NCBI GenBank assembly: GCA_965226495.1 | Contig: OZ245365.1 | Location: forward strand, 704,001-768,000 | DNA length: 64,000 nucleotides | Direction of reading: 5' to 3' | Source: Candidatus Marinacidobacterales bacterium | GTDB taxonomy: Bacteria; Acidobacteriota; Vicinamibacteria; Marinacidobacterales; DATDRI01 | Made by a program: the position numbers and the translations under genes | The notes under the pieces: model-generated | Told to the model about the DNA's origin: nothing | The model's database searches: none | Seen by the model: only the letters and a program-made list of their open reading frames with translations | Shown here: piece by piece, positions 14,524-44,788 of the stretch | Numbering within the stretch: position 1 is the stretch's first letter | How the letters are laid out: each line of letters opens with the position of its first letter

Positions 14524-15710
14524 TCGACCACACTCGTCAGGAGCTCGCTGAGCTTACGGCCTCTTTCCTCCCACGAATAACCCTTGGCGTCTTCCGTCGC
14601 CTTCGCGGCGAGCCGGTGCGCCATTTCCGGATCGCCGGCCAACCTTTGTATGGCGGCGGCGAGGGCATCGGGGTCTCCGGGTGGAACGAGAAGCGCGTTC
14701 TCATCGTTCGTCAGAACCTCTCGCAACGATGGAAGGTCCGATGCCACGATGGCTCGACCGGATGCCATGGCTTCGAAGAGTTTGAGGGGCGATGTGAAAA
14801 CGCGGGCCGTCATCGAATCGAGCAACGGGATCACGAACACGTCGGCGCTCGTTCTCTCTTTGGCTACCTCGGGAGGTGGAAGAAAACCTCGAAATCGCAC
14901 GCGGTCGGTGAGGCCGAGTCGTTCCGCGAGGCGACGGACTCGATCGAGGTCGGGTTCCGGTGGAAGTCCACCGATCACCACCAACTCGACTCCAAGTATG
15001 TTTTTCATCGATTCGATGAGAATATCGACGCCCTTCCACGGGTAGAGCTGTCCGACGTAGTACACCTGAAGGGGTTTGTCGGCGGATCGTTCTCGGGGTG
15101 GTTGCGGTTTCGTCGGAACCTCGGTGCCATCCGGGATAACTCGCGCCGGAGCAAGCGGTGCATGGAGCTCGGAAAGAGACTTTAGAAGGCCATGGGTAAT
15201 TGCGACCACCGCAGCCGCTCCTTGGCAGACGCGGTGCTCACGTCGGCTGAGCCTCTTCAACTTGCGAGCACTCGGGGGGCGAGAGTCCGGACCTTGGTAG
15301 AGACGACGGGTTTCCTCTGAAAAGAGCGCGGCCGCAGTGTGGGCCTCGTAGATCACCAGACGTCGGTGGTACCACTTTGTGCGCAAGGCAAGATCGGCCA
15401 GGACGAGGTCTCGCGTGTACACCGCGTCGTACCGGCCGTTCGCCAAGAAAGGGATGGCTCTCGCCGCAAAGGTCAATTGTCCCCAAACCGACCCGGGAGC
15501 CGCGGTGGAAAGACGCCGCAGCTCGAGATTGGGATGCGGGGTGAGCCCGAAGAATTCCAGGCAGGCTTCATCGGATCGGGAATCACTCCGGCGCACCACG
15601 AGATCTACCTGCACCCCTTGTCGAGCCAGCGCGTGGCACGTTTGCACGGTCTGGATACCGTTGGCCCGCTCCATCGGAAAACGGATGTCGGCGAGGTAGA
15701 GCAGTCTCAT
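14520..15710 (-). CDS. GT4 glycosyltransferase
   Basis: Start moved to ATG 15710 (MRLLYLADIRFP..ANGIQT). YVGQLYPWKGV and SPLKLFEAMASG motifs. Confidence 0.9.
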   Translation of the reverse strand: MRLLYLADIRFPMERANGIQTVQTCHALARQGVQVDLVVRRSDSRSDEACLEFFGLTPHPNLELRRLSTAAPGSVWGQLTFAARAIPFLANGRYDAVYTRDLVLADLALRTKWYHRRLVIYEAHTAAALFSEETRRLYQGPDSRPPSARKLKRLSRREHRVCQGAAAVVAITHGLLKSLSELHAPLAPARVIPDGTEVPTKPQPPRERSADKPLQVYYVGQLYPWKGVDILIESMKNILGVELVVIGGLPPEPDLDRVRRLAERLGLTDRVRFRGFLPPPEVAKERTSADVFVIPLLDSMTARVFTSPLKLFEAMASGRAIVASDLPSLREVLTNDENALLVPPGDPDALAAAIQRLAGDPEMAHRLAAKATEDAKGYSWEERGRKLSELLTSVVD

Positions 15711-17860
15711 TGGATGTAGCCTAATGCCCGGAGTGTGTCTTGCATCTCTCGATCCAGCTCCACTTGATTGCGAGCCGACCCCAACGGGAGGTGCCACACC
15801 CGAGCCAGCTCATCCTCCCGGTGAAGGAGGTCGTCTATCTCAGAAAGAGAAACCTGGAGCTCTTTCGGGTTTGCGTCGAAGGGGAACGCGATTGTCTCAA
15901 CACGCTCCGAGCCCAATCTCGCTCTCACCGTTTCGACCGTATGGCCGTCGCGCACAAGGGCGAAGCGAACCGGCGAACCTCCGGTCCTCGTCTGGATGAC
16001 GAGGTGTCGTCTTCTATCGTCGGCGGTGAAGGTGAGCGTCAATTTCTTGCGCTTCGAATCCACGTCGAAGAGGTCCCCGGTAACGATGGGAAACCGGAAC
16101 GCGTTTATGATTTCGACTTCCGACTCAGCATGAACCACAACGCGGGTGCCCGCTTTGTCGCCTCGAATAGAAAAGTGGAGGCCGTGCTGTCCGAGCTGGA
16201 CGAAACGCTCGAGCTCAGCAACGAGCTCGCGCGCCTGGGGCGGAACCGAAGGCAGTAGGTTCTTCCGCTCGGCGCGGTCCTTCTTGACGTCGAACAGATA
16301 CTCTTTTGGCGTCGGGACGAGCTCCCGGATATATTTGTGATCTTCATCGTAAACGGCGTAGCTCACGAACTTCGGGGCCACCAGCTCGGCAAGGAGCCGC
16401 CTTTCGCTCGTCTCGCCCCCTTCGAGTAACGGCGCGATGCTGCGGCCCTGAAAGACCGAGGGAACCGGCAACCCAGCTAGCTCCAGCAGGCTGGGAGCCA
16501 AGTCGATGTTCCCGACCAGCGAGGGTATCCGCCTGCCCGCCTTCTCGGAATGCGGCAATTTCAGAATACCGGGAATATGCAACGCTTCGCGGAAGAGAGT
16601 CTTGCCGTGCCGCGTGAAGTCATGTTCGCCAAATTCTTCGCCGTGATCGGCGGTCACGAGCAGTAGGGTCTCATCGTACAGCTCGAGTGCCTTCAAGGCC
16701 TCGACCAGCCTCCCGATCTCGCGGTCATTGTAGGCGAGCTCGTTGTCGTAGAGCTCCCGGTCCCGAGTTAGTCCCTCTTCAGCAGTCTTCACAAAAATTT
16801 CATCGAAGGGAGGTCGAGGTCGATAGCCGAAGTGGAGATCGAGGGAGTGCAGATACAAGAAGAAGCTCCGGCCACGATTTTCCTCGAGCCACGGGAGGAC
16901 CCCGTTGGTAATGTCGGCCGCGTCACTCTCGAGGGCATTGATGTGTTGCCCTGCGGAGCGCGCCTTGAAAGTCCGAAGATCCACCCACCGGTCGAATCCC
17001 TGGTTGAAAAAGAAAACGCGGGGCTTGATGACCGGATTGGCTACCCAGGCCGCGGTCGTATATCCGGACGCCCGGAATGCTTCGGCGAGGGTCAAGCGTT
17101 CGTAGGGCAGTGCGTCGTCGATGGTGCGCGCTTGGTGGTACATCGGAAGTAGTGAAGTGAACAGGCAGCCGGTGGACGGCTTGGTCCAAGGGGCACACGA
17201 CATGAGCTCCTCGAGGACGACGCCGTCCTCGGCTAGCGCGTCGAGTGTTGGAGTTGCGGGGAGCGGGTAGCCGTAGGCGCCGACGTGGTCGGCTCGAAGA
17301 CAGTCGACCACGTAGACGAGAACGTTGGGTCTTTTCGCCTCCGCCCGCGACGCGACGCCCACGACCTCGGGGTTGCCTAGAATCACCATCGCTTGTGGAC
17401 CGTCAACCGAGAGCTCGAGCTCGAGACTCCGTCCGGCGAAGCGGCTGAGGTCGATGCGACGCTCGACCCAATCTCTCTCTTCTTGCCACACTTCTTGCCA
17501 AATCTCTTGATTGACGACTTCGCCATCCACGACCGTGAGACGGATCTCGACCGGGACCTCCGGCTTCCGCACCGCGAGCCCGAAGCGAAGCTCGCCGCCA
17601 CGAGGAACGTCGCTTCGAAAAAACAACTTCGACGGACTCTCGAGAACCAATGACGGTCGGCGATCGCCATGGATCTCCGCATCGTGTACCTCAAAGGGTG
17701 AGTTGCTGCGCACGACGGCGTTTCGGAGCGAGCCCGGGCGCTGTTCGTCCATCTCGCTCACATCCAGCAGCCGTTGGTACGTCACGAGCCTCTCCGGTGC
17801 TCGCGCGCAATTCGAGACCAAGATGGCAGCAAGGATTGCAAGGAGTCGGCTGAGGGTCAT
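15707..17860 (-). CDS. Sulfatase-like (alkaline phosphatase superfamily) lipoprotein #1, Thr-type motif, with extra N- and C-terminal domains
   Basis: Start ATG 17860 with signal MTLSRLLAILAAILVSNC. Motifs VVDCLRADH, WTKPST, H..DLH and TADHGEEF.EH. Ends LRALGYIQ. Confidence 0.85.
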   Translation of the reverse strand: MTLSRLLAILAAILVSNCARAPERLVTYQRLLDVSEMDEQRPGSLRNAVVRSNSPFEVHDAEIHGDRRPSLVLESPSKLFFRSDVPRGGELRFGLAVRKPEVPVEIRLTVVDGEVVNQEIWQEVWQEERDWVERRIDLSRFAGRSLELELSVDGPQAMVILGNPEVVGVASRAEAKRPNVLVYVVDCLRADHVGAYGYPLPATPTLDALAEDGVVLEELMSCAPWTKPSTGCLFTSLLPMYHQARTIDDALPYERLTLAEAFRASGYTTAAWVANPVIKPRVFFFNQGFDRWVDLRTFKARSAGQHINALESDAADITNGVLPWLEENRGRSFFLYLHSLDLHFGYRPRPPFDEIFVKTAEEGLTRDRELYDNELAYNDREIGRLVEALKALELYDETLLLVTADHGEEFGEHDFTRHGKTLFREALHIPGILKLPHSEKAGRRIPSLVGNIDLAPSLLELAGLPVPSVFQGRSIAPLLEGGETSERRLLAELVAPKFVSYAVYDEDHKYIRELVPTPKEYLFDVKKDRAERKNLLPSVPPQARELVAELERFVQLGQHGLHFSIRGDKAGTRVVVHAESEVEIINAFRFPIVTGDLFDVDSKRKKLTLTFTADDRRRHLVIQTRTGGSPVRFALVRDGHTVETVRARLGSERVETIAFPFDANPKELQVSLSEIDDLLHREDELARVWHLPLGSARNQVELDREMQDTLRALGYIQ

Positions 17861-21006: not shown

Positions 21007-21099
21007 GTGGAGTCTACGCTAATGAAATGGCTGATTGAGGTCAACAGTTCGACAGGAGTGGTTGCCTTTGAATCAAGGAGACTTTATCCTGCCGGATTG

Positions 21100-22344
21100 A
21101 TGCTTTCGCCGCACTCACGCCGAGCGAGGTCGAGTCATTCCGTTAATCGATTCGCTATTTCGTGCATGCTCGCCAGCTCCATCATGTCGTGTATCGCAGA
21201 GAGGGAGCCCGACCCGACGGCCGAGGACGTTGCTGAGAACTTACAGTCCCTCTCCTACACCGCCTGGAGCCCGCTCGAGCACGCAGGTAGAGCCGGTGTC
21301 GTAGGCCATGACCGGAGCCGGGCTTATCCAGCTCTCAACCTTTTCAATTCTCTCCCCCGGGCCAGAGCGACACTCATGGACATGGAGGGGAAGACGCTGC
21401 ATGAGTGGTCCCTTGACGCCGCAAAAGAATGGGCACACGTCATGCTGCGGCCAAACGGTGATCTCCTGGTGCTTAGTGAAATCCCCCGGAAGCTCCTTCG
21501 ACTGGATTGGGAGTCCAACGTCATCTGGGAAGAGGAGATCGAGGCCCACCACGACATCGACATCGCCGACAACGGTGACCTTTATGTGTTGACCGGGAAG
21601 GATGAGCGGGTCGATCACGATGGAGTCGAAATCCCGATTAGAAACGAGTTCATCTTGATCCTGACGCCGGATGGGCGAAAGAAGCGTCGCCTTTCATTCT
21701 TACCTATTTTCCGACATCTCCTCGACTTCGACCAGATAAAAAGGTTCGTAGAAACGAACGGCGAGGTGGGCGAGGGGATGCGTTTCGAAGGGGATGCGGT
21801 CGACATTTTTCATGTCAATACTCTCTCCATCATCGACCGGACACACAACGATTTTCTCCGGAAGGGCTTCGTATTGGTAGCCGCCCGGAGCCTCAACCGG
21901 GTCGCGGTCATAGATCTGGAGGCAGAAGAGCTCGTTTGGAGCTGGGGAGAGAACGATCTCGACTGGCCTCACCAGCCCGTGCTCCTAGGGAACGGGAACC
22001 TACTCATCTTCGACAACGGGACCCACCGCAAATACTCCCGGGTGATCGAGCTCGATCCGACGACGGCCGAGATCGTCTGGGAGTACAAGGGCGATCCGCC
22101 GAAGTCTTTTTACACCGCGTTGAGGGGAGGCATCCAGAAGTTAACCAACGGAAACATCCTGGTCACTGAATCACGTCGGGGTCGTGCTTTCGAAATCACG
22201 CACGAGGGAATGATCGTTTGGGATTTCTACAACCCGGATATCTATGAAAGGCCGAAAAGGCGGAGCAAGAGAGCTACTATCTATTGCATGACCAGAATCG
22301 CGCCCGATTTTCTGAACCCCCGTTTGTGGGCCCAGGTTCAGTGA
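21100..22344 (+). CDS. Arylsulfotransferase (ASST) family beta-propeller lipoprotein #1
   Basis: AHHDID, DIFHVNTL, AARSLN, WPHQP, LIFDNG..R.YSRVIELDP and NGNILVTES motifs. IMSC is a possible lipobox. Start uncertain (21100-21170). Confidence 0.85.
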   Translation: MLSPHSRRARSSHSVNRFAISCMLASSIMSCIAEREPDPTAEDVAENLQSLSYTAWSPLEHAGRAGVVGHDRSRAYPALNLFNSLPRARATLMDMEGKTLHEWSLDAAKEWAHVMLRPNGDLLVLSEIPRKLLRLDWESNVIWEEEIEAHHDIDIADNGDLYVLTGKDERVDHDGVEIPIRNEFILILTPDGRKKRRLSFLPIFRHLLDFDQIKRFVETNGEVGEGMRFEGDAVDIFHVNTLSIIDRTHNDFLRKGFVLVAARSLNRVAVIDLEAEELVWSWGENDLDWPHQPVLLGNGNLLIFDNGTHRKYSRVIELDPTTAEIVWEYKGDPPKSFYTALRGGIQKLTNGNILVTESRRGRAFEITHEGMIVWDFYNPDIYERPKRRSKRATIYCMTRIAPDFLNPRLWAQVQ

Positions 22345-22346
22345 GC

Positions 22347-23717
22347 ATGAACGTCCGGTTCCGCTGGGTTCTCTTGATGGCTCAAGTGTTCCTAGGATGC
22401 GCCGGGCATCCTCCGGAAGCCCTAGAGGCTCCAAACGCTCCCGATGGCGTTCTGTTGATTGTGGTCGATGCCTTGCGTCCCGATCACCTCGGTGTGTACG
22501 GGTACGAGCGTGCGACCTCACCCCATCTAGACAAGTGGGCGGAGCAAGCGGCGGTGTTCGAGCGGGCCTTTACGACGTCACCTTGGACGCTACCCTCGTT
22601 CGGATCGATGTTGACCGGAGAATTGCCAGCTCGACATGCTGCCGGTAGCCGGGTGCGGGAGTCCAACTGGACTGTCTCCACCCGTTTGAACGACGCGCTC
22701 CCCACGCTACCTGAGACTCTCGCCGCGTCGGGGTTCGTTACTGGCGCGATCATCAACAATCCTTGGCTTCCTCGCGGTGTCGGATTGGAAAGAGGGTTCG
22801 ATACATACGACTACCAAAGTCCGGATGAACAGAATCATCGGCGCGCCGCAGAGGTCGTAGATCTCTCCTTGAAATGGATTGCGGAGAGCTCAGAGAGTCC
22901 ATTCTTTTTCATGATGCACATCTTGGATCCTCACATGACCTACGATGCGCCCGCACCCGTCCGTGGGCGTTTCACGTCTGGTATGCCCGGTGGGTTCGAG
23001 CTACCCGTGATCGAGCCGCGAAAGATTCGGAAGCGGGCGCAATCCATTGCAGACGGTGAACGCCAGTTCATCACCGCTGCCTATGACGAGGAAATTGCCT
23101 ACGTGGACCAAGAGCTCGGGCGTTTGTTCACGGCGCTCGAAGAAGTGGGTCTCTTCGAACGTTTGGTGATCGTTTTGACTTCCGACCACGGCGAAGAGCT
23201 TTTCGATCATGGAGACTTCGAGCATGGGCACGGAATGTATCAAGAGCTCCTGCGGATCCCGCTTCTGGTCTGGGGACCCGATGTGCTGCCCGGCCGGCAC
23301 ACCGCACCAGTCTCCTTGGTCGATCTGTACGACACGATCCTTGAGTCGGTCGGGGCGACTCCCACGGGGGGGACCGCGGGGCAGTCTCTCTGGCCGGCGG
23401 TCACGAAGGGCGATGCGATCCCCGAGCGGCCGATCCTGGCCGAAGCGACGCTCTACGGGCCGGAGCGCCGCGCCATCATCCGATGGCCGTTGAAGTTGAC
23501 ACTCGAGACGGGTGTCGGCCGCCGCCGGCTCTACAACCTCGAAACCGATCCCGGAGAGCAAGCCGATTTGGCGCCCGAGGAAGAGCGTGCGGTCGAGTAT
23601 TTGTCGAATGAGCTCCGTAGCACGATGCAGGCGGCACGACAGGGAGTTGAGGCGGAGGCACTGCCCTTGGACGAGGAGATGTTGAGGGAGCTGCGCTCAC
23701 TGGGCTATGTCAACTGA
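22347..23717 (+). CDS. Sulfatase-like lipoprotein #2, Thr-type
   Basis: Lipobox FLGC. Motifs VVDALRPDH, WTLPSF, HILDPH and TSDHGEE. Ends LRSLGYVN. Confidence 0.88.
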   Translation: MNVRFRWVLLMAQVFLGCAGHPPEALEAPNAPDGVLLIVVDALRPDHLGVYGYERATSPHLDKWAEQAAVFERAFTTSPWTLPSFGSMLTGELPARHAAGSRVRESNWTVSTRLNDALPTLPETLAASGFVTGAIINNPWLPRGVGLERGFDTYDYQSPDEQNHRRAAEVVDLSLKWIAESSESPFFFMMHILDPHMTYDAPAPVRGRFTSGMPGGFELPVIEPRKIRKRAQSIADGERQFITAAYDEEIAYVDQELGRLFTALEEVGLFERLVIVLTSDHGEELFDHGDFEHGHGMYQELLRIPLLVWGPDVLPGRHTAPVSLVDLYDTILESVGATPTGGTAGQSLWPAVTKGDAIPERPILAEATLYGPERRAIIRWPLKLTLETGVGRRRLYNLETDPGEQADLAPEEERAVEYLSNELRSTMQAARQGVEAEALPLDEEMLRELRSLGYVN

Positions 23718-23727
23718 CACCCTCGAG

Positions 23728-24924
23728 TTATTCATGCTCGGGAAGCAGACCCGGCTGAGAAAAATCCGCAGCTATTCTCGTCATGCGGTAGATCGAGGCC
23801 CTCTTGTCCCGAACTTCGTTCACGTCAGGGTTGTAGAATTCCCAAGCAACCTCTCCCTCGCGCGTGATCTCAAAAGCGTGGCCTTTCGTCGATTCGGTAA
23901 TCAAGATATTACCGTTCGGTAGCTCCTGAACTCCCCCCATCATTACCGAGAAGAAAGATTCGGGAGGCTCGGCCGTGTACTGCCAAACGATCTTGCCGGC
24001 CGATGGATTCAGTTCAATAACGCGAGAATACTGGCGGTGCGTGCCGTTGTCGAAAATCAAGATGTTCCCGTTCTCTAGAAGGACTGGTTGGTGGGGCCAA
24101 TCGAGGTCTCCCTCACCCCAAGTCCAAATGAGTTTTTCTCTTTCGACATCGAGCACGCCGATGAGATTCAGGCTTCGGGCTGCAAAGAGTACGAAGCCTT
24201 CTTGGAAGAATTCATTGACCGTACGGTCGATAATGGAAAGTGTGTTGATGTGAAAAACGTCGACGAAATCTCCTTCGAAACGGAACCCGTAGTCTATCTC
24301 GCCACCGGTTGCAATGAACTTTTGAAGTTTGTCCATGTCGAGGAGGTGGCTCAGCAGAGGGAGAAAGGAAATCGTGTGGGTGATTTGCCCTTCCGGCGAA
24401 AGAACGAGAATGCTGTGGTTCCGAACTGGAATATCTAGACCATTGTAGTTCGTATACTCCTCCGACGCGGACAGCACGTAGATCTCGCCTTCGTTGGAGA
24501 TGTCCATGTCGTGGTGAACGTAAACTTCCTGGGTCCACAACATGCTGGAATTCCAATCCAATCGAATTAGTTTGCGGGGCAGTTCGTTTAGCACCAGAAG
24601 GTCACCGTTCGGAAGCGGTTTCACGTGCTCCCACTTCTTGCCCGTGTCCAGCGACCAAGAATGCAGCTCCTTTCCGTCCATATCAATTAGGGCCGCTCGG
24701 GTCGCAACGAGAGAGTTGAACAGGTTGAGCCCAGGGTACGCGCGCTGGGGACGATGGACGACGACACCCTCCTTTTCCTTGTGCTCAATCGGACTCCACG
24801 ACGTGTAGGGAAGTGCCCTGAGCTTCCTTGCGCTCTCCTCGGGAGTCTCATCCTTGACCTTGGTCTCGATGCTGCAGGCGGCGTTCAGGCAGGCGACGCT
24901 CAAAAGGAGCAGAATCCGTTTCAT
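23728..24924 (-). CDS. Arylsulfotransferase (ASST) family lipoprotein #2, close paralog of #1
   Basis: Start ATG 24924, MKRILLLLSVACLNAAC. Motifs VHHDMD, DVFHINTL, AARSLN, WPHQP and LIFDNG. Confidence 0.87.
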   Translation of the reverse strand: MKRILLLLSVACLNAACSIETKVKDETPEESARKLRALPYTSWSPIEHKEKEGVVVHRPQRAYPGLNLFNSLVATRAALIDMDGKELHSWSLDTGKKWEHVKPLPNGDLLVLNELPRKLIRLDWNSSMLWTQEVYVHHDMDISNEGEIYVLSASEEYTNYNGLDIPVRNHSILVLSPEGQITHTISFLPLLSHLLDMDKLQKFIATGGEIDYGFRFEGDFVDVFHINTLSIIDRTVNEFFQEGFVLFAARSLNLIGVLDVEREKLIWTWGEGDLDWPHQPVLLENGNILIFDNGTHRQYSRVIELNPSAGKIVWQYTAEPPESFFSVMMGGVQELPNGNILITESTKGHAFEITREGEVAWEFYNPDVNEVRDKRASIYRMTRIAADFSQPGLLPEHE

Positions 24925-24938
24925 CGTTAAGCTGGCCT

Positions 24939-26405
24939 CTATTGGATGTAGCCCAGGGAGCGCAGCTCTTCCCGGACGCGCGGCGGAAGGTCGACGCTTT
25001 CTGCTCCTTCCGGCGTGGCGCGGACCGAAAATGCTTTCGATTCTCGTTGGAGCAAGGCCGACCTGAGTTCGTCGAACTTTTGGCGCGCTCCCGGGCTCAA
25101 AGTTCGTTCGTCTTTCCACTGGAGCGGCCTATGCTCACCGGGGTCGTTACCTAGATCGAACAAGAGCTCGGTCTCTGCGTCACGGTTCACGATGTACTTG
25201 AAGTGAGGGGTGCGCAGCGAGGTCCAGTCACCGCTCCGTCGCAAGCTCGAGATCGCCCCGGCGCGCTGGAGAGAAGCTTTACCCTTGAGGGTGTCTCCCA
25301 AGTTTCTGCCCCCGACGCCGTTCAACGGGTCGCCCGGTTCTTCGATGCCTGCGAAGGCAAGTAGAGTCGGCAGGATGTCGAGATGGCTCACCTGCTCCGA
25401 AATGCGGACTCCTGCTTGTACTTCTCCCGGTAGCCTTACGATCATCGGGATCTGGATAACTTCATCGAAAAGCGTGCGGTAGTGACCCTTGTCGCCATGC
25501 TCGAAGAACTCCACACCGTGGTCAGAAGTCACCACGATCAGCGTGTTCTCACGCAAGCCGTTGCGGTCCAGCGCGTCGATCAAATAGCCGATTTCGCGAT
25601 CGGTATAGAGGATCTCAGCATCGTACAGGGCGACTAAGTGGTCTAGGTCTCTCGGATCCATGTTGGCGTTGATTGCTTCGTTCTCTTGAAAGTACTCACC
25701 GGTCATCGTTCCCTGATAGTCAGCGTCGAATTTGCGCCAAAGCTCTTCGGGGGCCATGTAGTCGAAATGCACATCGAAGTAATGCAGGAAGAGAAAGAAA
25801 CGCTGATCGGACACTGTACCTAGAAACTCGATCGCCTTTTCGGTGATGAGGTGGCTGGTGACGATGCGGTGCGACATGAAATTCGTCTTCTTGACTTTGC
25901 TGTCGGTTCCTGGAATGGTGGGATCGAAATCCACCTCGTCGTAGACCGTCTTGCCCATCGCGCTCTCGTAGCTATCGAACCCGCGGCCGAAGCCGAAGAT
26001 GGGATGCAGGTAAGGCCCGCTGAACACACCGTAGGTGCGATAGCCTCGCTCGCTCAGGATTTGAGCAAGGGTCGAGTAGTCGGCGCTGAGCGTCGAGCCC
26101 GAGAAGTACTCGACACCGTGGGTCTGGGCTGGCAACCCGGTAAGCATCGTCATGTGCGTCGGCAAGGTCCAGGAGCTTTCCGCAATCACATTCTCGAAGA
26201 GCGTTCCTTCCTGAGCCAGGCGATCCAATGTGGGCGTCGTTTCTCTCGGATAGTCATAGGAGTGGACGTGATCGGCTCGCAATGAGTCGATCGAGATGAG
26301 AAGAATGTTGACCGGCTGTTGCTCCGGGCGCCCGGCGCAAGACACGGTGAGCCCGGTGAACGTGATGAGCCCGATCGCTAGAAAGCTTCTAGGAAATATC
26401 GTCAC
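24939..26405 (-). CDS. Sulfatase-like lipoprotein #3, Thr-type
   Basis: Signal ending TVSC. Motifs SIDSLRADH, WTLPTH, HYFDVH and TSDHG. Ends LRSLGYIQ. Confidence 0.88.
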   Translation of the reverse strand: MTIFPRSFLAIGLITFTGLTVSCAGRPEQQPVNILLISIDSLRADHVHSYDYPRETTPTLDRLAQEGTLFENVIAESSWTLPTHMTMLTGLPAQTHGVEYFSGSTLSADYSTLAQILSERGYRTYGVFSGPYLHPIFGFGRGFDSYESAMGKTVYDEVDFDPTIPGTDSKVKKTNFMSHRIVTSHLITEKAIEFLGTVSDQRFFLFLHYFDVHFDYMAPEELWRKFDADYQGTMTGEYFQENEAINANMDPRDLDHLVALYDAEILYTDREIGYLIDALDRNGLRENTLIVVTSDHGVEFFEHGDKGHYRTLFDEVIQIPMIVRLPGEVQAGVRISEQVSHLDILPTLLAFAGIEEPGDPLNGVGGRNLGDTLKGKASLQRAGAISSLRRSGDWTSLRTPHFKYIVNRDAETELLFDLGNDPGEHRPLQWKDERTLSPGARQKFDELRSALLQRESKAFSVRATPEGAESVDLPPRVREELRSLGYIQ

Positions 26406-27820
26406 TGCACATAACCAAGGGATTCGAGGCGTTCGATCTCCTCTGGAGAGAGGACGATGTTCGGGCCACTGACGGATTGTCGTTCAGAGAAACGTTCGAG
26501 CGCTTCCTGAAGCCTGGCGACTTCTACCGAGCGTTTCTGGCCATCCCAGAGATTCTCTCGTTCTTCGGGATCGTTTTCCAAGTTGTACAGCTCATATCGG
26601 CCGGTATCGAGGTTGTAGATGAGCTTGCGCTGCTCCCACTCCACCATGATCTTGCGATCCTTCGTCCCCCAGGCGAAGCTGCCCTCACTGAAGATCGGTC
26701 GCCCGCTACTGCCTTTCGCGGCGAGTACCAGCAGGTCCTCCCCTTGGAACGGGTTGGTGTCGACCTGGGCCAGTCGGGCAAAGGTGTGGGCCAGGCTGGC
26801 GGGCTCTACCGCCTCCGAGTAACGCCGTCCCTGGAGCTCACGATCGATGTCTCCCCATATGATCAGCGGGACGTGAACGAGCTCGTCATAGACGTCTCTC
26901 CCGTGGCCGAAACGGCCTCGCTCCATGAAGTACTCGCCGTGATCGGCGGTCAAGGCAGCGATCGTCGGTCGCCGCAACGGTAAGTTTCCAATAGCTCGGA
27001 AGAGGCGGCCGATGGACTCGTCTGTAAACGCGATCTCCTCGTCATACACCGCGGTGACCGTTGTCAGCGAGAAAGGATCGGGGACGGTGTCGTCCCCCAA
27101 GGCTTCGGCGGCTCTTCGGAGCTCGCCGGCGCGGAGGCGATCGGGTACCTGCTTCGGCGGGCCATGGGCGAAGCGAAACTCCGGATGACGCACATAGGTT
27201 AGATGGGGATCGAAATAGTGTACCCATAGGAAGAAGGGCTCTTTCGCTTTCCTGCGGAGATACTTCATCGCCGTCCTCGTCACCTCGGGCGAAGTGACCG
27301 CCTCGTGGCCCTGGACCAGTGTGTCGTCGAAGGTGGCGAAGCCTTGATCGAAGTTGTAGCGCCGACTGACGAAGGTGTGCGTTACCACGGCGGTGGTGTC
27401 GTAGCCAACGTCCTGGAGTGACTCCGCGAGGGTCGTCAACTCGTTTCTTAGAGGGAGCTGGGCGCCGGTTGCCCCGTGCTCTCGGGGATAAAGAGAGGTG
27501 TGGATCGACGCGATACTGGGAAGGGTCCATGGAGCCGACGAGATCGCGCGCTCGAAAAGGACTCCCGATGCCGCGAGGCGATCGATGCGGGGCGAGGACG
27601 GACGATAGTGACCGTAGCAGCTAAGATGATCGGCTCGCAGCGTATCGACGGTGACGAGAACGAGATTGGGTTGCGGCCTGGGCACGTCGTCGGGGCCACC
27701 GCGACCATCGGTACAGGCACCGGCAGCAGAGAGGAAGCCCGAAAGTGCTGCAACGAGCTGCAAGAGTTCCCGCCGGGAGAGGGAAGCTGAAAATGGAGGC
27801 TCGGGGTCGGGTGCGATCAT
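26402..27820 (-). CDS. Sulfatase-like Tat-lipoprotein #4, Thr-type
   Basis: Start ATG 27820. SRRELL twin-arginine signal ending AGAC. Motifs TVDTLRADH, WTLPSI, HYFDPH and TADHGE. Ends LESLGYVQ. Confidence 0.86.
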   Translation of the reverse strand: MIAPDPEPPFSASLSRRELLQLVAALSGFLSAAGACTDGRGGPDDVPRPQPNLVLVTVDTLRADHLSCYGHYRPSSPRIDRLAASGVLFERAISSAPWTLPSIASIHTSLYPREHGATGAQLPLRNELTTLAESLQDVGYDTTAVVTHTFVSRRYNFDQGFATFDDTLVQGHEAVTSPEVTRTAMKYLRRKAKEPFFLWVHYFDPHLTYVRHPEFRFAHGPPKQVPDRLRAGELRRAAEALGDDTVPDPFSLTTVTAVYDEEIAFTDESIGRLFRAIGNLPLRRPTIAALTADHGEYFMERGRFGHGRDVYDELVHVPLIIWGDIDRELQGRRYSEAVEPASLAHTFARLAQVDTNPFQGEDLLVLAAKGSSGRPIFSEGSFAWGTKDRKIMVEWEQRKLIYNLDTGRYELYNLENDPEERENLWDGQKRSVEVARLQEALERFSERQSVSGPNIVLSPEEIERLESLGYVQ

Positions 27821-30033: not shown

Positions 30034-30082
30034 AGCGAAGTCAACAGTTGTTCAGAACTGCTAGGCCGTCGAGGCCGTGCGC

Positions 30083-30088
30083 TATACT
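30083..30088 (+). promoter_or_regulatory. Putative -10 box TATACT 10 nt before ATG 30099
   Basis: Sequence gcgcTATACTcgcccgtcgcATG. Confidence 0.45.
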
Positions 30089-30098
30089 CGCCCGTCGC

Positions 30099-30862
30099 AT
30101 GATGAAAGAGCTGGTCGCCATCCGATGGCTTGCTTGCGCCGCCGCCCTGGCGCTCTTTTTCGAGAGCGGCTGTGGGGAGGGTGAGCCTCCGAGCTCTTCG
30201 CGGTACTTTTTCGTGGACCACGCGGAAGAAGTAGGACGTGAGTTGCCGCTGCGTAAGGGGTTGCAGCTAGCGACGTCGATTACTATGGCGGACGAGACGC
30301 GCCGGAGCTTGGTGCCTCCGATCCCTTCCCGCCTCGCGTTCGATGTCGAGGTCCCGAACGATCCGGTGCTGCGATTCGGAATCGGCGTGTTCACGTTCGA
30401 CGCGCCCGGCCTGGGGGCAGCGGTGGAGTTCCATCTGTATCTCGACGCGGGTGGCAACCCGGAGGAAGTTTTCGCAGGCGTTGTGGGGCGAGCCCGGCCC
30501 AATCTTTGGTTCGACCAGGAAGTGGATCTATCGACATGGCAAGGCTCGAGCGTACGTTTGATCCTCGAAACGAAGCAAAGGGGATCGGGTGAGGCTTCGG
30601 GAGAGCGTCCAGCGCTTGCGCTTTGGGGCAATCCGGTTCTTTCGAGTCGGAGCGAACGTTCCGAGCGTCCGAACGTCATCCTGATATCCATCGACTGTCT
30701 GCGCTCCGATCATCTCGGGAGCTACGGTTACTCCCGGAACACGACCCCGAGTATCGATGCCTTGGCCGGGGACGGCGTTCTGTTCGAGACGGCGGTGAGC
30801 ACGTCGTCGTGGACGAGCTTTTGCGGGAGAGGTTGGAGGCACTCGGATACCTCGACAACTGA
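30099..30862 (+). pseudogene. Sulfatase-like lipoprotein #5 with large internal deletion
   Basis: Lipobox ESGC, accessory domain, then SIDCLRSDH...STSSWT. It joins directly, out of frame, to the terminal [17 protein letters not shown] at GTGGACG (30809-30815). The catalytic core is missing. Confidence 0.85.
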
Positions 30863-34322: not shown

Positions 34323-34332
34323 CGGTTATCGG

Positions 34333-35581: not shown

Positions 35582-35601
35582 TCGCGCTCGGCAACAAGCC
35601 A

Positions 35602-37812: not shown

Positions 37813-38014
37813 GCCATTTGTCCACTGGTGGGGGATCCTCCTAGACTCGGCTTTCCCTGCGTTATACTCGCCATCGATTTGATGCTGGCTTCCTTCTCCC
37901 CGTAGCGAGACTACGGCCGTCAAAATACGCGATGCCAAAGATAAACGTGGCCAGACGACGGGTGAGGGGCTCATGTTGAGAGAGCTGGTGACACTCTGGC
38001 CGGGCGGTCCGGCC

Positions 38015-39661: not shown

Positions 39662-41532
39662 CGCGAGAGGCCGGCCAGGGAACAAAAAGTCTGCAGGTCG
39701 GCGCGGTACCTCACCGCCCAGACAATTATCAACCCGGCGACAATCATCACCGCGGCGATCTTGCCGGCTCGATTTCGTTTTGCGAGCTCGAGGATGCTGG
39801 CGCTCGCGGAGATCGCAATCAGGGGACCCACAAAGAGTATCTCCTTTAAGTCTTTGAACAGGCCGCCCGATAGACCCCTCAAGCCCAGGAGGAAGACAAA
39901 GGTCAAGAAGTAGGCGAGCATGGGACGGAAGACGCTAGGTTCGCGCCGACGATACACGAGGATCATTCCTACCACGGCAAGAGCCCAGTATCCGACGTCG
40001 TAGAAGATGAGTGGCCGGCGTAAGGCTGCCGCAAAGCCAGCGCTTGCCCCGCCCTCCAGGGTTGGCAGACCGGAGTTTCCGAGGGTGGGCACTATCTCGG
40101 TCAGAAACGTCCATGTGAAAGACGAGTAAAGCACTGCGATGGCAATGATGGCGGCAACTGCGCCGACGAGGAGCGGCCCCAGCCGTCGCTGTAGCGCCGC
40201 GAAAAGAGAAGTGAACGGGGCCAAGGTAAATAGGCTCGAGACATAGGTGAGGAAAGAAGCGAGAGAGAGCCCGCCAAACACGAGGAGTCCACGAAGGCTG
40301 GAGGGCGATCGGGCGAGCAGCGCCGCCGATGTGATCGTCAGCACGTCGAGAAGGTGACCCCATGTGGTCGGCCACATCGCAAGGAAGAGGCGGTTGTACA
40401 TGACGGGAAGAAAAGCCGCTAGAAGCGCAGCCAGTATCCCATTGCCAGATCCCAGCCAGATCGTAGCCAGCCAGTAAACGACGATGGTCTGCGCCGCCGC
40501 CGCGGCGAGAGCCGCGTATTTGAGCGCCTCGTCGACCTGCGCACGATCGCGCAGTCCGGTGAAGGGTAGATAGAAAAGCGGCGAGTAGGGAAAGGCGTAG
40601 CGTTTGCCTCCCACGTTGCGAGGGTAGGCGATGTTGCTCTTTTCTTGAGCCGCCACTCCCCGTGCCTCGAGGCTAACTCCTTCAGACGGGAATGCTAGGA
40701 CATATCGTCCGTGCGTCAGCACGTCGGGGGAGAAGAAGCTGGGGTAAAAAATGGCTGCGCCTTTCAGTAGATAGCCCACCATGAATAACAACGGAAGCCA
40801 ACGTCGGTCCTCGGCTTCGGAGATGAAGCGGCTGAGGACGATGGTGACTCCGCCGAGCAACACCGCGCGCGAGGCGATCTTGTCACTCACGTGCGCCACC
40901 CCAAAGGGATCCACCGCGAACCAGGTAGCCTGAATGGCGGACAGAATGAAGGCGGCGGTGAAAGCATGCGACAAGCGAAGGCCGGAAAGAAGGCAAACTA
41001 GGAAGAGACCTGCGACCAGCAGGCGCGGTGGCCAGAAGTCGAGCGGTAGTCTAGCTCTCGTTCCTTCGAAGCGGATCCAGTCGACGGCGATTCCAAGCCT
41101 TTCGGGCGCGGGATCTTCGGTCAGTAGCTCTACCCGTACAGGATTTCCGTTGAAGCGAACCGGAAGCCTCTGGATACGAAATCTCCCCGGGCGCGCTTCG
41201 AACGAACCGGCCGGTTGACCATCCACGAAGAGACGTACTCGCGCCATTCCATCGAGAAAACGCCCGTAGCGGAGGACTACGGCACCTTCGCCCTGCGAGC
41301 TCAGGAGGAAAGTGGACACAGAGGCCGTCTCGTGCGTCCACCGAAAGCTGACGCCAGGGCGTTCCTCACTCTCAGCGAATCCCGAAAGGTAGTCTTCGGT
41401 GGAGGGGCCGATGTCGACGTCCACCGGACCCCCAGCACGACTCGCCAGCAAGAGCAGCGTTTCGCTGAAAACGAGCAGTGCGATGCAGGCGACTCCGAGC
41501 CGCGACCAATGTCTAAGGGGTCGTCTGCTCAT
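39658..41532 (-). CDS. GT-C-like membrane protein with N-terminal beta-rich domain
   Basis: Start ATG 41532. GFAESEE...FRWT domain, SPDVLTH and FPYSPLFY motifs, many TMs. Confidence 0.65.
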   Translation of the reverse strand: MSRRPLRHWSRLGVACIALLVFSETLLLLASRAGGPVDVDIGPSTEDYLSGFAESEERPGVSFRWTHETASVSTFLLSSQGEGAVVLRYGRFLDGMARVRLFVDGQPAGSFEARPGRFRIQRLPVRFNGNPVRVELLTEDPAPERLGIAVDWIRFEGTRARLPLDFWPPRLLVAGLFLVCLLSGLRLSHAFTAAFILSAIQATWFAVDPFGVAHVSDKIASRAVLLGGVTIVLSRFISEAEDRRWLPLLFMVGYLLKGAAIFYPSFFSPDVLTHGRYVLAFPSEGVSLEARGVAAQEKSNIAYPRNVGGKRYAFPYSPLFYLPFTGLRDRAQVDEALKYAALAAAAAQTIVVYWLATIWLGSGNGILAALLAAFLPVMYNRLFLAMWPTTWGHLLDVLTITSAALLARSPSSLRGLLVFGGLSLASFLTYVSSLFTLAPFTSLFAALQRRLGPLLVGAVAAIIAIAVLYSSFTWTFLTEIVPTLGNSGLPTLEGGASAGFAAALRRPLIFYDVGYWALAVVGMILVYRRREPSVFRPMLAYFLTFVFLLGLRGLSGGLFKDLKEILFVGPLIAISASASILELAKRNRAGKIAAVMIVAGLIIVWAVRYRADLQTFCSLAGLSR

Positions 41533-42913
41533 TGGGTCGGCGCCACAAGGCGAGGAAGGCCAGGCCCGCCATGGCGAGGATAAACAGGATCTTTCCCACT
41601 GCGAGGAGACCAGCCATTCCGGAAAAACCCCACTGTTGAATGAAAATCCAGGAGAGCCCGAGCACGAACGCGGTGTGCACGCCGACTCCTTGCGCGTATT
41701 GGCGGGCCCGCCCTGAGGCGTAGTAGAGCGGCTTGACCGCGAAGAATGCCGCCTCCACCGCGGCACCGGCCATCATGAACTGAAGGCCGACCACCATGGG
41801 TCGGTAGATCTCGCCGAAAGCCCATGGGACCAAGACCGGCAGGATGGGTATGCTCAGCAGCAACAGCAGACAAATAGGAAGACCACCCTGAAGAGTCCAT
41901 CGCTCGATGCTCTTCTTCAGCGACTCTATTTCTCCTTTGGCCCAGCGACCAGAAAAAATTGGATACGCCACACGGCCTAGCGCCTGGCCGATCTGTGAAG
42001 CGGCAAGCACGAGACTGCTGGCCAGACGGTAATAGCCCGCGGTCTCCGGGCCGCGAAGCCAACCGAGTAGAATCAACGGACCCTGGGCCATCAATCCGCC
42101 AAAGGAGACGATGAGATAGTTCCATCCGAAGAACGAGCCGAGCTCTCTCCACGAATGTCTCAACTGACCGAGGGGCGCGGACCACCAGGCGCCGATGCCT
42201 GCGTTCTTCGAAGTCCATGTGGCAAAGGCCATGAGCAGAAGACCACCGGTCGCTTGGGCAACCGCCGTCCCTAAAACCATTCCCGCAACGTCGAGACCAC
42301 CCAACAGCAAGCCGACAACGAGGACGAATTGGATAACTCGTTCGCATAGTTGCAAACCCGCCAGCGAGCGAAACTCTTGCAATGAAGTCAGCACTGCGGT
42401 CCCCGTTCCTCTCAGAGAGGAGAAAACGAACGACGAGCTGTAGGCAACGATGACCGTTGTCGCTCCCGGTCGATCAACGACGTGGGGCGTCAACCAAATG
42501 GCACTCAGGCCGATCACTGCAAACGCCACGAACGAAGCTAGGAGATCGACCACGTAGCCGAGCTTGCACATGCTTTCGAACTCGGAAACCTTTCGCGTCG
42601 AAACGAACCCGGCTAGGTAGCGTGTGGTCACGGACGCCGATTTGACCGACGTGAGGGACCAGACCAGGTTTGGATACGCCATGATCAGTGCAGCAACGCC
42701 GTAGGAAGACGGTCCCAGCAGACGGGCGGCGGCGATGGAGGTGAGCAAATTGACGCTCGCCCCCACGTACTGAGACGCCGCAAGAGCCCCGGCGCCACTG
42801 ACCATCGGGTGGCTCAGCAGCCGCCAGAAGCCTGCCCAAACGCCGTCGCCGAAGGCTGCCCCGTCGGTCTGCCGAGCGGTAGGGTAATCGTTGTCTTCTT
42901 CGGGATGGAGCAT
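41513..42913 (-). CDS. Wzx/MOP-family oligosaccharide flippase
   Basis: About 12 TMs. AARLLGPSSYG and LGWLRGPETAGYYRLA..L motifs. Confidence 0.88.
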   Translation of the reverse strand: MLHPEEDNDYPTARQTDGAAFGDGVWAGFWRLLSHPMVSGAGALAASQYVGASVNLLTSIAAARLLGPSSYGVAALIMAYPNLVWSLTSVKSASVTTRYLAGFVSTRKVSEFESMCKLGYVVDLLASFVAFAVIGLSAIWLTPHVVDRPGATTVIVAYSSSFVFSSLRGTGTAVLTSLQEFRSLAGLQLCERVIQFVLVVGLLLGGLDVAGMVLGTAVAQATGGLLLMAFATWTSKNAGIGAWWSAPLGQLRHSWRELGSFFGWNYLIVSFGGLMAQGPLILLGWLRGPETAGYYRLASSLVLAASQIGQALGRVAYPIFSGRWAKGEIESLKKSIERWTLQGGLPICLLLLLSIPILPVLVPWAFGEIYRPMVVGLQFMMAGAAVEAAFFAVKPLYYASGRARQYAQGVGVHTAFVLGLSWIFIQQWGFSGMAGLLAVGKILFILAMAGLAFLALWRRPNEQTTP

Positions 42914-42938
42914 AGCGCCTCAGAGAAGTCTCTTGAGA

Positions 42939-44788
42939 CTAATTAATGTAACCCAAAGCGCGTAGCGTTTCCTTGGTTTGTTCGTCCAGAATCACACCCG
43001 CACCTGATACGCGATCTCCTTTTGCCTTGGCTAAGAATGTTCGCACGTTGGCTAATAACATTTTGGTTTCCGTCTCTTTGGACCGACTGAGGTCGTTTTG
43101 CTCTTCGGGATCATCTGCCAAATCGTAGAGCTCTTGTTGCACGACCTGCGTTCGGCCCTCGGGGTTGGAGAGCGTCACGACGTATTTCAGATCTCGAATT
43201 CTCATCGCGATCTTCACGCAGCTATCGCCTTCCGCACAGCCGAGTGAGCCCTGTGACACCTCGCTGATGACGCTTCTTTCGTCGAAAGCGTGGCTCTGCC
43301 ATTCTGCCAAGTCCAAAGCTCCGGTTGGCGGCGGATCGATACCCGCGGCTCGCAATACCGTGGGGAATATGTCGGTTTGGCTGGCCAGCGTCTTCGCCCG
43401 TCCGGTCGGTAGATTCCCCGGCCACTTCACTACGAGGGGTATGCGGATGATTTCATCGTACAGGCTAACCGTATGTTGCCAGTGCCCGTGTTCGTAGAAG
43501 GCTTCGCCGTGGTCGGCGGTCACGATGATGAGCGTGTCATCGTAGAGGTCTCGCGCCTTGAGCTCATCGAGAAGTCGTCCAATCTGCTCGTCCACAAATC
43601 CAACCTCGGCGTCGTATAAACGGATTACGTCGTCTATCTCGACTTGGTCCTTCGGCTTGCCTCCGTCGAACACCTTGTCGAGCAAGTCCGAGATGTCCGG
43701 GGGGCGCGGTCCGAATCGCTCGCGCCATGTTTTCGGCGATAGGTATGGCCAGTGCGCGTCGATTAGGTGAACGAAGAGGAATTGCTCTGTTCCTTCGCCG
43801 CGACCGAGCAAATCGATGGCGGCGTCTATTGTTTTGTCCGCTGTGCTACCTACCATTAACCGGTAGTTGTGAAAACCGCGATAAAAGTTGAAGTGTTGCG
43901 AGACGAAGTACCAGGAAGCCACTCCGACGACTTGATAGCCAGCGCGAGAGAGGAGCTCGGGCAAGTAAGCGACATCATCGCTCAGCTTCCGCTGACGGGT
44001 GACCCCGTGGAAAGAAGGTAGAAGGCCGGTCAGCATGGAGAAATGAGTGGGCAGGGTCCATGACGACGTGCTGAAGGCCGCCTCGAAAACCGTCCCATTC
44101 TCGGCCAGGGCATCGATGTGGCGGGTCGTGTCTCTCGTGTAGCCATACGCTCCGACGTGATCGGCTCGCAGGCAGTCGATGGAAATTAGAACCACCGGGG
44201 GCCGGTCGCCGCGATAAGTCTTGCTCGACACCGTCGGGCTGCCCCAGACTGGCATCACTCGCTGGGCAGTCCATTGCACGCGGTCCCGAGGACGGTCGAC
44301 TCGGGTCTCGAATGTCAGTCGCAGTCGGCGTCCCTCCCATTCCGATAGATCGATTTCCCGATCTAGCCAACGTCCCGCCTGGTTGCGGCGGAGGCTTTCC
44401 GTGAAGAGAGACTTGCTGACGCCGTCGGCTTCGGCCAGCAATCGGAATTCGACCGGGGGAATACCTTGGCATCGCCGATCGGATTGAGGGCGATGGCGAA
44501 CCGCAGGATCGGATTCGACGGCACCCTGACCCCGAACGCGAATCGCGACGGGAGAGGAGGAGCGAGCGCCAGTCGGGACTCATCCTCGAGCGTGATCGGC
44601 AACGACAGCCTCGCGTCGTTTCGGCTCGAGAGAAACAGTTTCCGGTTGAAAGTCGCCTCCGCCTCATTCAAATGATCGATGAAGTAAAAGGGGGGAGGCG
44701 GTTTCGCGCTTCCATCGCCACAACCGGTAGCGTTCAGCGCGAGGAGCGAGAACGCTATGAGATATTGCCGCGCAGGCTCACGTAGCAT
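42939..44788 (-). pseudogene. Sulfatase-like lipoprotein #6, Thr-type, split by a frameshift near 44457 (possibly sequencing error)
   Basis: N-terminal part 44363..44788 (lipobox ATGC) joins 42939..44441 (SIDCLRADH, WTLPTH, TADHGE, ends LRALGYIN) if the G5 run at 44455-44459 were G6, giving FPPVEFRLLAE. Confidence 0.83.

Follow-up and report, generated by a model that had tools for sequence, protein, structure and literature searches.

The question raised by this locus is why its "sulfatase-like" enzymes end in a common short peptide, L-x-x-L-G-Y, which recurs near the N-terminus of two beta-propeller lipoproteins resembling arylsulfate sulfotransferases (ASSTs). The window analysed here, 64,000 nucleotides long, covers positions 704001-768000 of the single 6.34-Mb contig of a genome referred to below as G000; the nearest named relatives of its proteins are metagenome-assembled genomes labelled Vicinamibacteria, phylum Acidobacteriota. 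Its 13-46 kb region is a polysaccharide-type locus with five PF00884 "sulfatase-like" genes (s1 to s5) and what is left of a sixth, together with two interspersed genes for ASST-like propellers, ASST1 and ASST2 (Table 1). Sequence comparison shows that the peptide is the part that stays invariant in a self-contained module, which is about 16-20 residues long. This module appears to belong functionally to Thr-nucleophile enzymes of the AlkP superfamily, mostly as a C-terminal fusion and otherwise as a separate small protein encoded beside tail-less AlkP genes. A docking role for it is proposed tentatively below.

The module and its tyrosine

In a six-frame scan of the window with the pattern L..L[GSPA]Y, 11 matches were found. 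Six of them read L..LGY and lie 2-3 residues ahead of a stop codon, and both ASST copies read L-x-x-L-[S/P]-Y, with S-Y and P-Y in place of G-Y. The three remaining matches, at 1751, 31888 and 55122, read L..LSY, lie in unrelated frames and seem to be fortuitous. All eight peptides listed by the original prediction, at six C-termini and two ASST N-termini, are present as written. Its description of the carriers as six sulfatase-like proteins needs correction: the six tails exist, but the one at 30833 sits on a deletion remnant and the s5 gene is frame-shifted. Across the whole genome, L..[LIVM]GY followed by exactly two residues closes 24 stop-to-stop open reading frames (ORFs) of at least 150 residues, with about 0.64 expected from the frequency of the pattern; outside the AlkP-linked set, about 6 ORFs have such ends and about 3.8 are expected. 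Since the six tails of the window are written in differing synonymous codons and the DNA downstream of them is unrelated, conservation acts on the protein, and a conserved DNA element at the gene ends is ruled out.

Tails of homologues were counted with the pattern [LIVMF]xx[LIVMF]G[YFWH] within the last 40 residues. For s3, the database holds 2220 relatives at E 1e-10 or better; among the best 120 of these, 113 carry the motif, and its aromatic residue is Y in 113/113; the seven others are three short fragments, three proteins with other ends and one L-I-E-N-G-Y variant. For the PF01663 homologues, the motif was found in 116/120, again with Y in 116/116, and in two of the four exceptions it is internal and followed by tetratricopeptide repeats (TPRs). 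In the 229 motif-bearing AlkP homologues the tyrosine is never F, W or H, even though the pattern permitted these residues, and L, G and Y all have zero entropy in 147 sequences at up to 85% identity. Exactly two residues follow the tyrosine in 69/113 sulfatase-like tails and 109/116 PF01663 tails. Within the genome, 26 of the 45 sulfatase-like ORFs end in the module and four more carry it ahead of a TPR array; three PF01663 ORFs confirmed by Pfam, and a fourth recognized by eye, also end in it. Four tandem sulfatase-like paralogues of 617-669 residues (G000 C1:780219-788541, minus strand) all have this end.

The N-terminal motif of the ASST family behaves similarly. Among the 120 best of 909 ASST homologues, the aligned position holds Y in 118, C in one and a gap in one, with no Phe. 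Just ahead of it stands P in 90 homologues and G in 25, and the x positions favour K/R/Q and S/A/T, like those of the AlkP tails. A profile made from AlkP tails only placed its best hit on this N-terminal motif in 64 of the 120 homologues, with any hit in 82; at 5 bits or more it recovered 12/120 real ASST sequences vs 1/1200 shuffled ones. Of the signs that the original prediction had named against its own reading, replacement of the tyrosine by Phe in homologues was seen in 0/113, 0/116 and 0/118 cases (with 1 Cys), and the ASST match, rather than failing in relatives, proved to be conserved there.

The module consensus is h-x-L-[S/T/D/P]-x-[E/D]-[E/Q]-h-x-x-x-L-[R/K]-[S/A/T]-L-[G/P]-Y-[I/V/L]-x. 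By the general rules of helix capping, we read it as one short amphipathic helix, capped at its N- and C-terminal ends, on a flexible and often acidic tether; a covariation between E(i) and R(i+3) (Z 3.5) fits a helix. Variants with two cysteines, C-E-x-L-x-x-L-G-Y-[IV]-x-C and L-C-x-L-G-Y-x-x-C, occur in the database proteins P0312, P0321, P0323, P0324, P0356, P0367, P0370, P0377 and P0381, and their layout points to a disulfide by which the chain, folding back, would be pinned to the helix. From the D-P-x-E motif of the core to the module there are nearly always 42-61 residues (medians 51 and 47). A search of solved structures with a 30-residue tail gave no match. Profiles of alignments A1 and A5 matched PDB chains only as far as the preceding core helix (furthest positions 468 of 477 and about 92 of 111), and the profile of the module alone (A4) gave only non-significant hits to solved chains; s3 is the reference for all three alignments. 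In 12 tails, no Pfam model for the TPR, a helix pair of 34 residues, was matched at E up to 10, and one tail gave a weak hit to PG_binding_1 (E 0.16).

In most cases, the module stands directly behind the AlkP core. In s1 it follows an extra domain of about 150 residues, and in the four genome paralogues mentioned above, as in PF01663 relatives, it has the AlkP core on one side and a TPR array on the other. The copy in ASST-like propellers is N-terminal, shortly behind a lipobox or, in longer homologues, behind a hydrophobic, transmembrane-like anchor of several helices; the more distant ASSTs of relatives read SPEQAQQMARLRAVGYLSG. It also lies in an insertion of about 40 residues in a PF05935-type ASST of G000 and of G026, an insertion that is absent from a sister ASST type. 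Finally, it closes a membrane microprotein of 170 residues, which runs from a Cys-rich N-domain through a single hydrophobic segment, containing an invariant Cys, and a linker rich in Pro and Ser to the terminal module, and which has no other extracytoplasmic domain. No family model of Pfam or NCBIfam matched this microprotein; its closest homologues (E 1e-10 or better) keep the motif in 17/24 cases, with three more near variants. Its gene (L022:2053-2565; G000 C1:1682900-1687500) stands beside an ORF of 308 residues (919-1845, minus) that by eye resembles an insertion sequence transposase. Elsewhere in the genome (G000 C1:4049340-4049543, minus strand), a stop-to-stop ORF of 67 codons ends ...DLAEAELRSLGYAQ, and is either a small carrier or a gene remnant.

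Several familiar kinds of terminal signal do not match this distribution. PEP-CTERM, LPXTG and similar sorting signals consist of a motif, a hydrophobic helix and a basic cluster. In the tails studied here, often only two residues follow the tyrosine, and the module also occurs internally and at N-termini. A strict free-carboxylate motif of the PDZ type is ruled out by tolerated extensions of 3-30 residues and by the internal copies. The association of the tail with lipobox or transmembrane anchors was judged by eye and carries no count.

Host enzymes, spread and the split form

The window proteins are predicted to be Thr-nucleophile enzymes of the AlkP superfamily, anchored by a lipobox or signal segment. 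The five genes with a full catalytic core score above the PF00884 gathering threshold (E 6.7e-40 to 1.4e-52). At the nucleophile position they have a threonine, in W-T-[L/K]-P-[S/T], and no C/S-x-P-x-R, the motif that supplies the formylglycine nucleophile, is present; type I (formylglycine) sulfatase identity is thereby ruled out. In an alignment to PDB 9s03, T80 is aligned with the Ser of S-x-P-S-R, and H84 with its Arg. T80, D40, D295 and H296 are invariant in alignment A1, whose 83 rows were picked from the 120 s3 matches and are almost all motif-bearing. All NCBIfam sulfatase equivalogs score far under their cut-offs for the window proteins (e.g. 136.8 vs 481 bits), and among the 45 sulfatase-like ORFs of the genome, a regular expression found C-x-P-S-R in two, both without the tail. 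There are partial matches to PF01663 and EptA/CptA models, and the NCBIfam models for EptA/MCR, phosphoethanolamine transferases and LtaS are all far under their cut-offs for the window proteins; in place of the N-terminal multi-helix membrane domain of lipid-linked transferases, only a lipobox or signal anchor is present. These annotations thus need a warning: the "sulfatase-like" proteins of this kind are not sulfatases. As for the propellers, true ASSTs act on phenols through a catalytic histidine that is transiently sulfated. ASST1 reaches 52.8 and 47.6 bits with PF05935 and PF14269, respectively, and ASST2 45.1 and 52.2 bits (cut-offs 24.2 and 27). Two histidines, His140 and His227, are invariant in their alignment (A2), with no catalytic role assigned to either, and a sequence search found no solved relative (best E 0.0028).

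An unbiased sample of the module's spread was drawn from public genomes, one per species, by searching for DNA that encodes E-x-L-R-x-L-G-Y-[IVM]-x-stop. At least 120 stretches were found, of which 80 loci with 84 matches were listed. Among the matches listed, 83 of 84 end in a stop codon and 66 of 84 lie in AlkP ORFs (45 sulfatase-like and 21 PF01663-like). Another 17 comprise six cut by the locus end, five small ribbon-helix-helix (RHH)-like proteins, one frameshifted AlkP, one divergent AlkP-like archaeal protein, one ABC-ATPase-like protein (by eye), one Era GTPase and two unclear cases. The contigs are labelled Proteobacteria, Myxococcota, Planctomycetota, Acidobacteriota, Chloroflexota, Actinomycetota, Clostridia, Spirochaetes, Armatimonadia, Gemmatimonadota and Eisenbacteria among bacteria, and Halobacteriales, Nitrosopumilus, Bathyarchaeia and Thermoplasmata among archaea. 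Because it is found in monoderm phyla and archaea, the module is not tied to an outer membrane, and an outer-membrane or lipoprotein sorting tag is ruled out by the carriers in Actinomycetota, Chloroflexota, Clostridia, Halobacteriales and Nitrosopumilus. At one locus (L109, contig labelled Halobacteriaceae), three neighbouring ORFs end ERLAELGYV, ERLRDLGYME and RRLADLGYR; two are AlkP-like by phmmer or motif expression and the third (RRLADLGYR) has the LGY end alone, so the module also occurs in haloarchaeal gene clusters. The ABC-type ATPase-like ORF (L061, contig labelled Acidobacteriaceae; 302 residues), in which Walker A GPTGCGKTT and LSGGQ were recognized by eye, has the end ...LHEQLRALGYMA and may represent a further cytoplasmic carrier or a chance match.

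Among 41 related genomes, the ASST query found matches in 9 and the s3 query in 25. The tail is INDEPENDENCE from ASST: 21 of 22 relatives' loci show a module-ending ORF, including all 16 ASST-negative genomes, which rules out dependence of the tail on ASST. A locus search with one ASST protein returned one related locus. AlkP proteins with the LGY end occur in 7/7, 17/17 and 0/16 of the relatives in groups f1, f2 and f3, respectively; as these are kin, this count and that of the RHH-like protein given below represent two clades and not independent events. One unpublished genome, G007, enters only the relatives' tallies for ASST, for AlkP-LGY and for the RHH-like protein, and the loci L001, L003 and L025; no claim of its own rests on it.

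The other form of the module is split from the enzyme. At three of the listed loci (two labelled Planctomycetota and one an unlabelled "bacterium"), a protein of 63-65 residues without signal peptide is encoded, its gene starting 13-31 nucleotides behind the second of two tail-less PF01663 genes. It reads MFGPRLKLDKALYERAREVAKVAGYSSVDEFIAAVIEREL..., followed by an acidic linker and then by EERLRGLGYIQ. In the class to which one such genome belongs, the small protein was found in 19/121 genomes, with the L..LGY end in 18/18 further copies; a tail-less PF01663 gene lies directly upstream of 13 of these, just downstream of one, and is absent from the 1.5-kb flanks of four. The same arrangement is present in G000, where two tail-less PF01663 genes (E 4.4e-29 and 6.1e-29) precede an RHH-like protein of 65 residues ending RKRLQGLGYIS; the gene pair occupies positions 1120852-1123131 and 1122936-1125122 of the genome. 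A tail-less PF01663 gene is directly upstream in 10/12 relatives' loci. The small-protein profile matched 23/41 relatives (f1 5/7, f2 16/17, f3 1/16, the last weak). The N-terminal part of a profile of 20 small proteins matched the NikR RHH domains of three species (E 0.0066-0.019). The Pfam hits of the small proteins were under the cut-offs, and Pfam antitoxin models are weak on them (PSK_trans_fac, E 0.023-0.094); neither the module nor the small proteins are named in Pfam or NCBIfam. Of the upstream pair in G000, one protein has a lipobox and the other a signal-like segment plus another hydrophobic helix with a basic stretch behind it. By the positive-inside rule, this second protein could have its catalytic domain on the cytoplasmic side, the side of the RHH-like protein.

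A proposed docking helix and its competitors

The fused-or-split pattern is a classical sign of co-acting parts, and on this basis the helix would be expected to bind the AlkP-fold core. A docking helix for AlkP-fold enzymes, acting in cis or in trans, is therefore the explanation that we favour, although it may well turn out to be wrong. The helix would occupy a groove on an AlkP-fold core, be it its own, that of a paralogue or that of a partner enzyme, and homo- and hetero-oligomers would be put together or regulated through its binding. One contact that could not be dispensed with would come from the Tyr hydroxyl and would possibly lie where the active site opens. The same handle would let the RHH-like protein, the membrane microprotein and the ASST-like propellers attach to AlkP enzymes or sense them. 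C-terminal extensions of this general kind are described in PMC5870055 for choline sulfatase, phosphonate monoester hydrolases (PMHs) and dimeric arylsulfatases of the alkaline phosphatase (AP) superfamily, in which they mediate oligomerisation and reach toward the active-site entrance of the opposing protomer. Also counted in favour of docking are the fixed Tyr, the occurrence in two AlkP Pfam families, the modularity, the like distribution of AlkP-LGY and RHH-like proteins over f1, f2 and f3, and the short distances, 2 and 14 nucleotides, between each ASST gene of the window and an AlkP-LGY gene. The original prediction had offered, as one option, a docking motif for a common membrane partner. 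Docking is retained, as it fits the fused and split evidence, but this evidence points to AlkP-fold enzymes and not to a membrane partner.

Several observations weigh against a docking helix. The RHH-like protein has no signal peptide and one of its upstream AlkP proteins is a lipoprotein, so that at least part of the proposed contact would need a cytoplasm-facing AlkP domain or binding before export. In four relatives, distant motif-bearing ASST-like genes have no AlkP gene within 10 kb. The 170-residue microprotein of G000 does not adjoin an AlkP gene, and its profile matched only this genome among 41 (0/40 relatives); because of this absence it is perhaps a recent acquisition. Mutual information with average product correction over the 147 sequences gave no tail-core pair above background (best Z 4.3, under the top-0.1% level), in an analysis that is underpowered. 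Finally, E. coli Era, a protein of unrelated fold, ends ...ERALRSLGYV, and the hexapeptide can thus arise as an ordinary helix end.

This last point leads to an explanation that we regard as unlikely but worth weighing, namely that the module is an ordinary structural helix end with generic C-cap packing in cis, and that the likeness among AlkP, ASST and other proteins is convergence. The cap in question would be of the Schellman type with a hydrophobic staple. The Era of 1EGA finishes with ...WADDERALRSLGYV and a second Era with ...FIRQIGYV; the rather even spacing of the module from D-P-x-E, the ASST motif that runs directly into the propeller (Y-x-x-W-x-P ... G-V), the helical covariation and the weak PG_binding_1 hit in 1/12 tails would all agree with such a cap. 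However, the aromatic residue of Era varies, that of this genome ending ...LTELGM, whereas the Tyr of the module is fixed in 229/229, and the likeness spans about 16 residues including the [S/T]-P-E-[E/Q] start. The small excess of such ends outside the AlkP-linked set (about 6 vs 3.8) also speaks against a generic cap, which moreover leaves unexplained why a domain-less microprotein keeps the module and why RHH-like carriers stand beside tail-less AlkP genes in two phyla. Alternatively, the helix might bind a third-party receptor, such as a TPR scaffold, chaperone, protease or sensor, rather than the AlkP core, with regulator-like carriers competing with the enzymes. A receptor would suit the number of carriers, which runs to dozens in a genome, the AlkP-module-TPR fusions seen in either AlkP family, and the regulator-like look of the RHH-like protein and the membrane microprotein. 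The module also has a weak likeness to the consensus TPR junction (7obi at E 0.51; four repeats at 2.6-3.4 bits; the same P-to-G spacing of 10), but this likeness is non-significant and the tails gave no TPR hit with Pfam. A candidate receptor did not emerge, and the tight conserved adjacency is specific to AlkP genes. Since the module is found inside and outside cells, in diderms, monoderm phyla and archaea with their many envelope types, a universal receptor or outer-membrane sorting machine is hard to picture, and we consider this alternative decidedly unlikely.

More improbable, in our judgement, is a covalent role for the tyrosine. As a phospho or sulfo counterpart of DltX, the tethered Tyr would pick up a phosphoryl-type or sulfuryl group at one active site and hand it over at another. 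Loading would be the task of an AlkP-fold enzyme, acting on the Tyr of its own tail or of a microprotein's. The helix would then bring the Tyr ester to a second active site, be it in a paralogue, in an ASST-like propeller or in a membrane glycosyltransferase, for the decoration of an envelope polymer. Both the AlkP and the ASST enzyme classes transfer groups via covalent intermediates, which can be counted in favour of such a shuttle, as can a Tyr that is invariant, never Phe, and tethered at the chain end. The microprotein has a DltX-like layout, with a membrane anchor and an extracytoplasmic C-terminal Tyr motif. Fused and separate small carriers likewise recall the FXYXXF shuttle, which according to PMC12148441 is fused in PatA-type MBOATs and separate in DltX. 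Against it stand the non-sulfatase nature of the AlkP proteins, the persistence of the tail where ASST is missing, the presence of the same tail on a signal-less protein of putative DNA-binding type, and a Pfam scan of 10 locus proteins that found no MBOAT, SGNH or other known shuttle partner. The narrower idea of the original prediction, a Tyr-O-sulfate carrier between the sulfatases and the ASSTs, is not supported: the nucleophile is Thr, 16 ASST-negative relatives keep the tail, and the same tail is found on PF01663 phosphodiesterase-type enzymes, on monoderm and archaeal proteins and on the signal-less RHH-like protein.

The locus and the known systems

The positions of the features are collected in Table 1. 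Besides the AlkP and ASST genes, the locus encodes YfhO-like and PMT_2-like membrane proteins, a Wzx-type flippase, an epimerase, a DAO oxidoreductase and a TIM-barrel protein (all by Pfam), as well as glycosyltransferases judged by eye.

Table 1. Module copies and their genes. Positions refer to the window, except in the last row, which refers to the genome G000.
Feature	Position	Strand	Details
s1 tail, DTLRALGYIQ*	15716-15733	-	six-frame scan
s2 tail, RELRSLGYVN*	23691-23708	+	six-frame scan
s3 tail, EELRSLGYIQ*	24948-24965	-	six-frame scan
s4 tail, ERLESLGYVQ*	26411-26428	-	six-frame scan
Remnant tail, L..LGY	30833-30850	+	six-frame scan
s5 tail, ETLRALGYIN*	42948-42965	-	six-frame scan
ASST1 N-terminal motif, ENLQSLSYTAWSP (ENLQSLSY)	21241-21258	+	17 residues after lipobox Cys
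ASST2 N-terminal motif, RKLRALPYTSWSP (RKLRALPY)	24805-24822	-	16 residues after lipobox Cys
s1, AlkP-superfamily "sulfatase-like" lipoprotein	15707..17860	-	PF00884 E 4.2e-49, residues 333-618; SGSH_C to 706 of 872
ASST1, ASST-like beta-propeller lipoprotein	21007..22344	+	PF05935 E 4.2e-14; PF14269 E 1.9e-12; lipobox IMSC
s2, AlkP "sulfatase-like" lipoprotein	22284..23717	+	PF00884 E 6.1e-45; likely start 22347; lipobox FLGC; W-T-L-P-S at nucleophile site
ASST2, ASST-like beta-propeller lipoprotein	23728..25119	-	PF14269 E 7.7e-14; PF05935 E 9.2e-12; likely start 24924; lipobox NAAC
s3, AlkP "sulfatase-like" lipoprotein	24939..26405	-	PF00884 E 8.4e-51; lipobox TVSC; W-T-L-P-T; core residues 24-445, tail residues 446-488
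s4, AlkP "sulfatase-like" lipoprotein	26402..27820	-	PF00884 E 6.7e-40; likely start 27820; Tat-like SRRELLQL and lipobox AGAC
Remnant of sixth AlkP gene	30048..30862	+	PF00884 profile positions 1-49 of 301 only
s5, AlkP "sulfatase-like", core intact	42939..44441	-	PF00884 E 1.4e-52
RHH-like protein, 65 residues	1125119-1125316		start overlaps upstream PF01663 stop

Some of these genes are tightly packed: the likely start of s2 lies 2 nucleotides behind the ASST1 stop, ASST2 starts 14 nucleotides past the s3 stop, and s4 overlaps the start of s3. The s1 protein consists of an N-terminal domain, the PF00884 core, the extra C-terminal domain and the module. Its likely start is MTLSRLL at 17860; the listed ORF of 872 residues extends about 155 codons further upstream, to 18325, and this long N-terminal extension is probably untranslated. 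The extended part (17857-18325) overlaps the 3' end of the YfhO-like gene.

Two of the AlkP genes are broken. The remnant keeps its N-terminal domain and the first 50 or so residues of the PF00884 core, up to "VSTSSWT", where the reading sense is lost; the remaining catalytic core (about 1 kb, judged by eye) is gone, and the LGY tail follows in a different frame, with about 20 sensible residues ahead of it. Right behind this remnant, the TIM-barrel gene begins on the opposite strand. In s5, the lipobox (LNATGC) and the N-terminal domain lie in a different frame, upstream of about 44,470 (about 44,440-44,700, minus strand), through either a frameshift or an assembly error. The syntenic locus of another genome of the same genus (G002, L016) is likewise broken into many frames. 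By eye, an N-terminal domain of about 150-200 residues (R-F-G-I/L...E-F/I-R-L...) recurs in three AlkP genes (15707-18325, 30048-30700 and 42939-44700), and comparable stretches open two large membrane proteins of the locus (27913-30033 and 39658-41766); no Pfam family was reported for this domain.

The enzymes that carry the module form a large and widespread clade of "sulfatase-like" and PF01663 proteins with no assigned function, of which this genome holds about 30 copies, and they share this strictly conserved appendage. The fused-or-split pattern offers a testable handle on what the helix binds and on what the tyrosine does, and could shed light on the assembly, the regulation or the substrate supply of these enzymes in polysaccharide loci like the present one.

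Some known systems come close to parts of this picture. The extensions of the AP superfamily (SmCS, RlPMH, dimeric arylsulfatases) are, like the LGY module, tails behind an AlkP-fold core, but those tails measure 40-60 residues or more, are family-specific and belong to formylglycine enzymes. The LGY module, by contrast, has about 16-20 residues, is shared by two Thr-nucleophile AlkP Pfam families and by non-AlkP proteins, and aligns with no solved chain. In DltX and PatA, as presented in PMC12148441, an invariant Tyr also lies near an extracytoplasmic C-terminus and is either fused or borne by a microprotein. DltX is defined there by FXYXXF on a microprotein or on an MBOAT C-terminus and by an MBOAT/SGNH pair, whereas here the sequence is L-x-x-L-G-Y, the companions are AlkP and ASST proteins, and one carrier is a cytoplasmic-type RHH-like protein. 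The C-terminus of Era (...ALRSLGYV in 1EGA) has the same hexapeptide a few residues from its end, with acidic residues ahead of it, but on an unrelated cytoplasmic fold and with a variable aromatic position, which is Met in this genome's Era. The small protein, for its part, resembles RHH regulators and type II antitoxins, the latter being built from an RHH domain and a C-terminal partner-binding tail. As in these, a putative N-terminal RHH-like domain is followed by an acidic linker and a C-terminal helix, in an operon with the presumed partner; its neighbours, however, are AlkP enzymes and not toxins. Docking tails on AlkP-fold neighbours and Tyr shuttle motifs are both known kinds of element. 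Neither this module, nor its spread across two AlkP families, ASST-like propellers and small proteins, nor the conserved AlkP-AlkP-RHH operon was found in Pfam, NCBIfam or a literature search with the terms tried.

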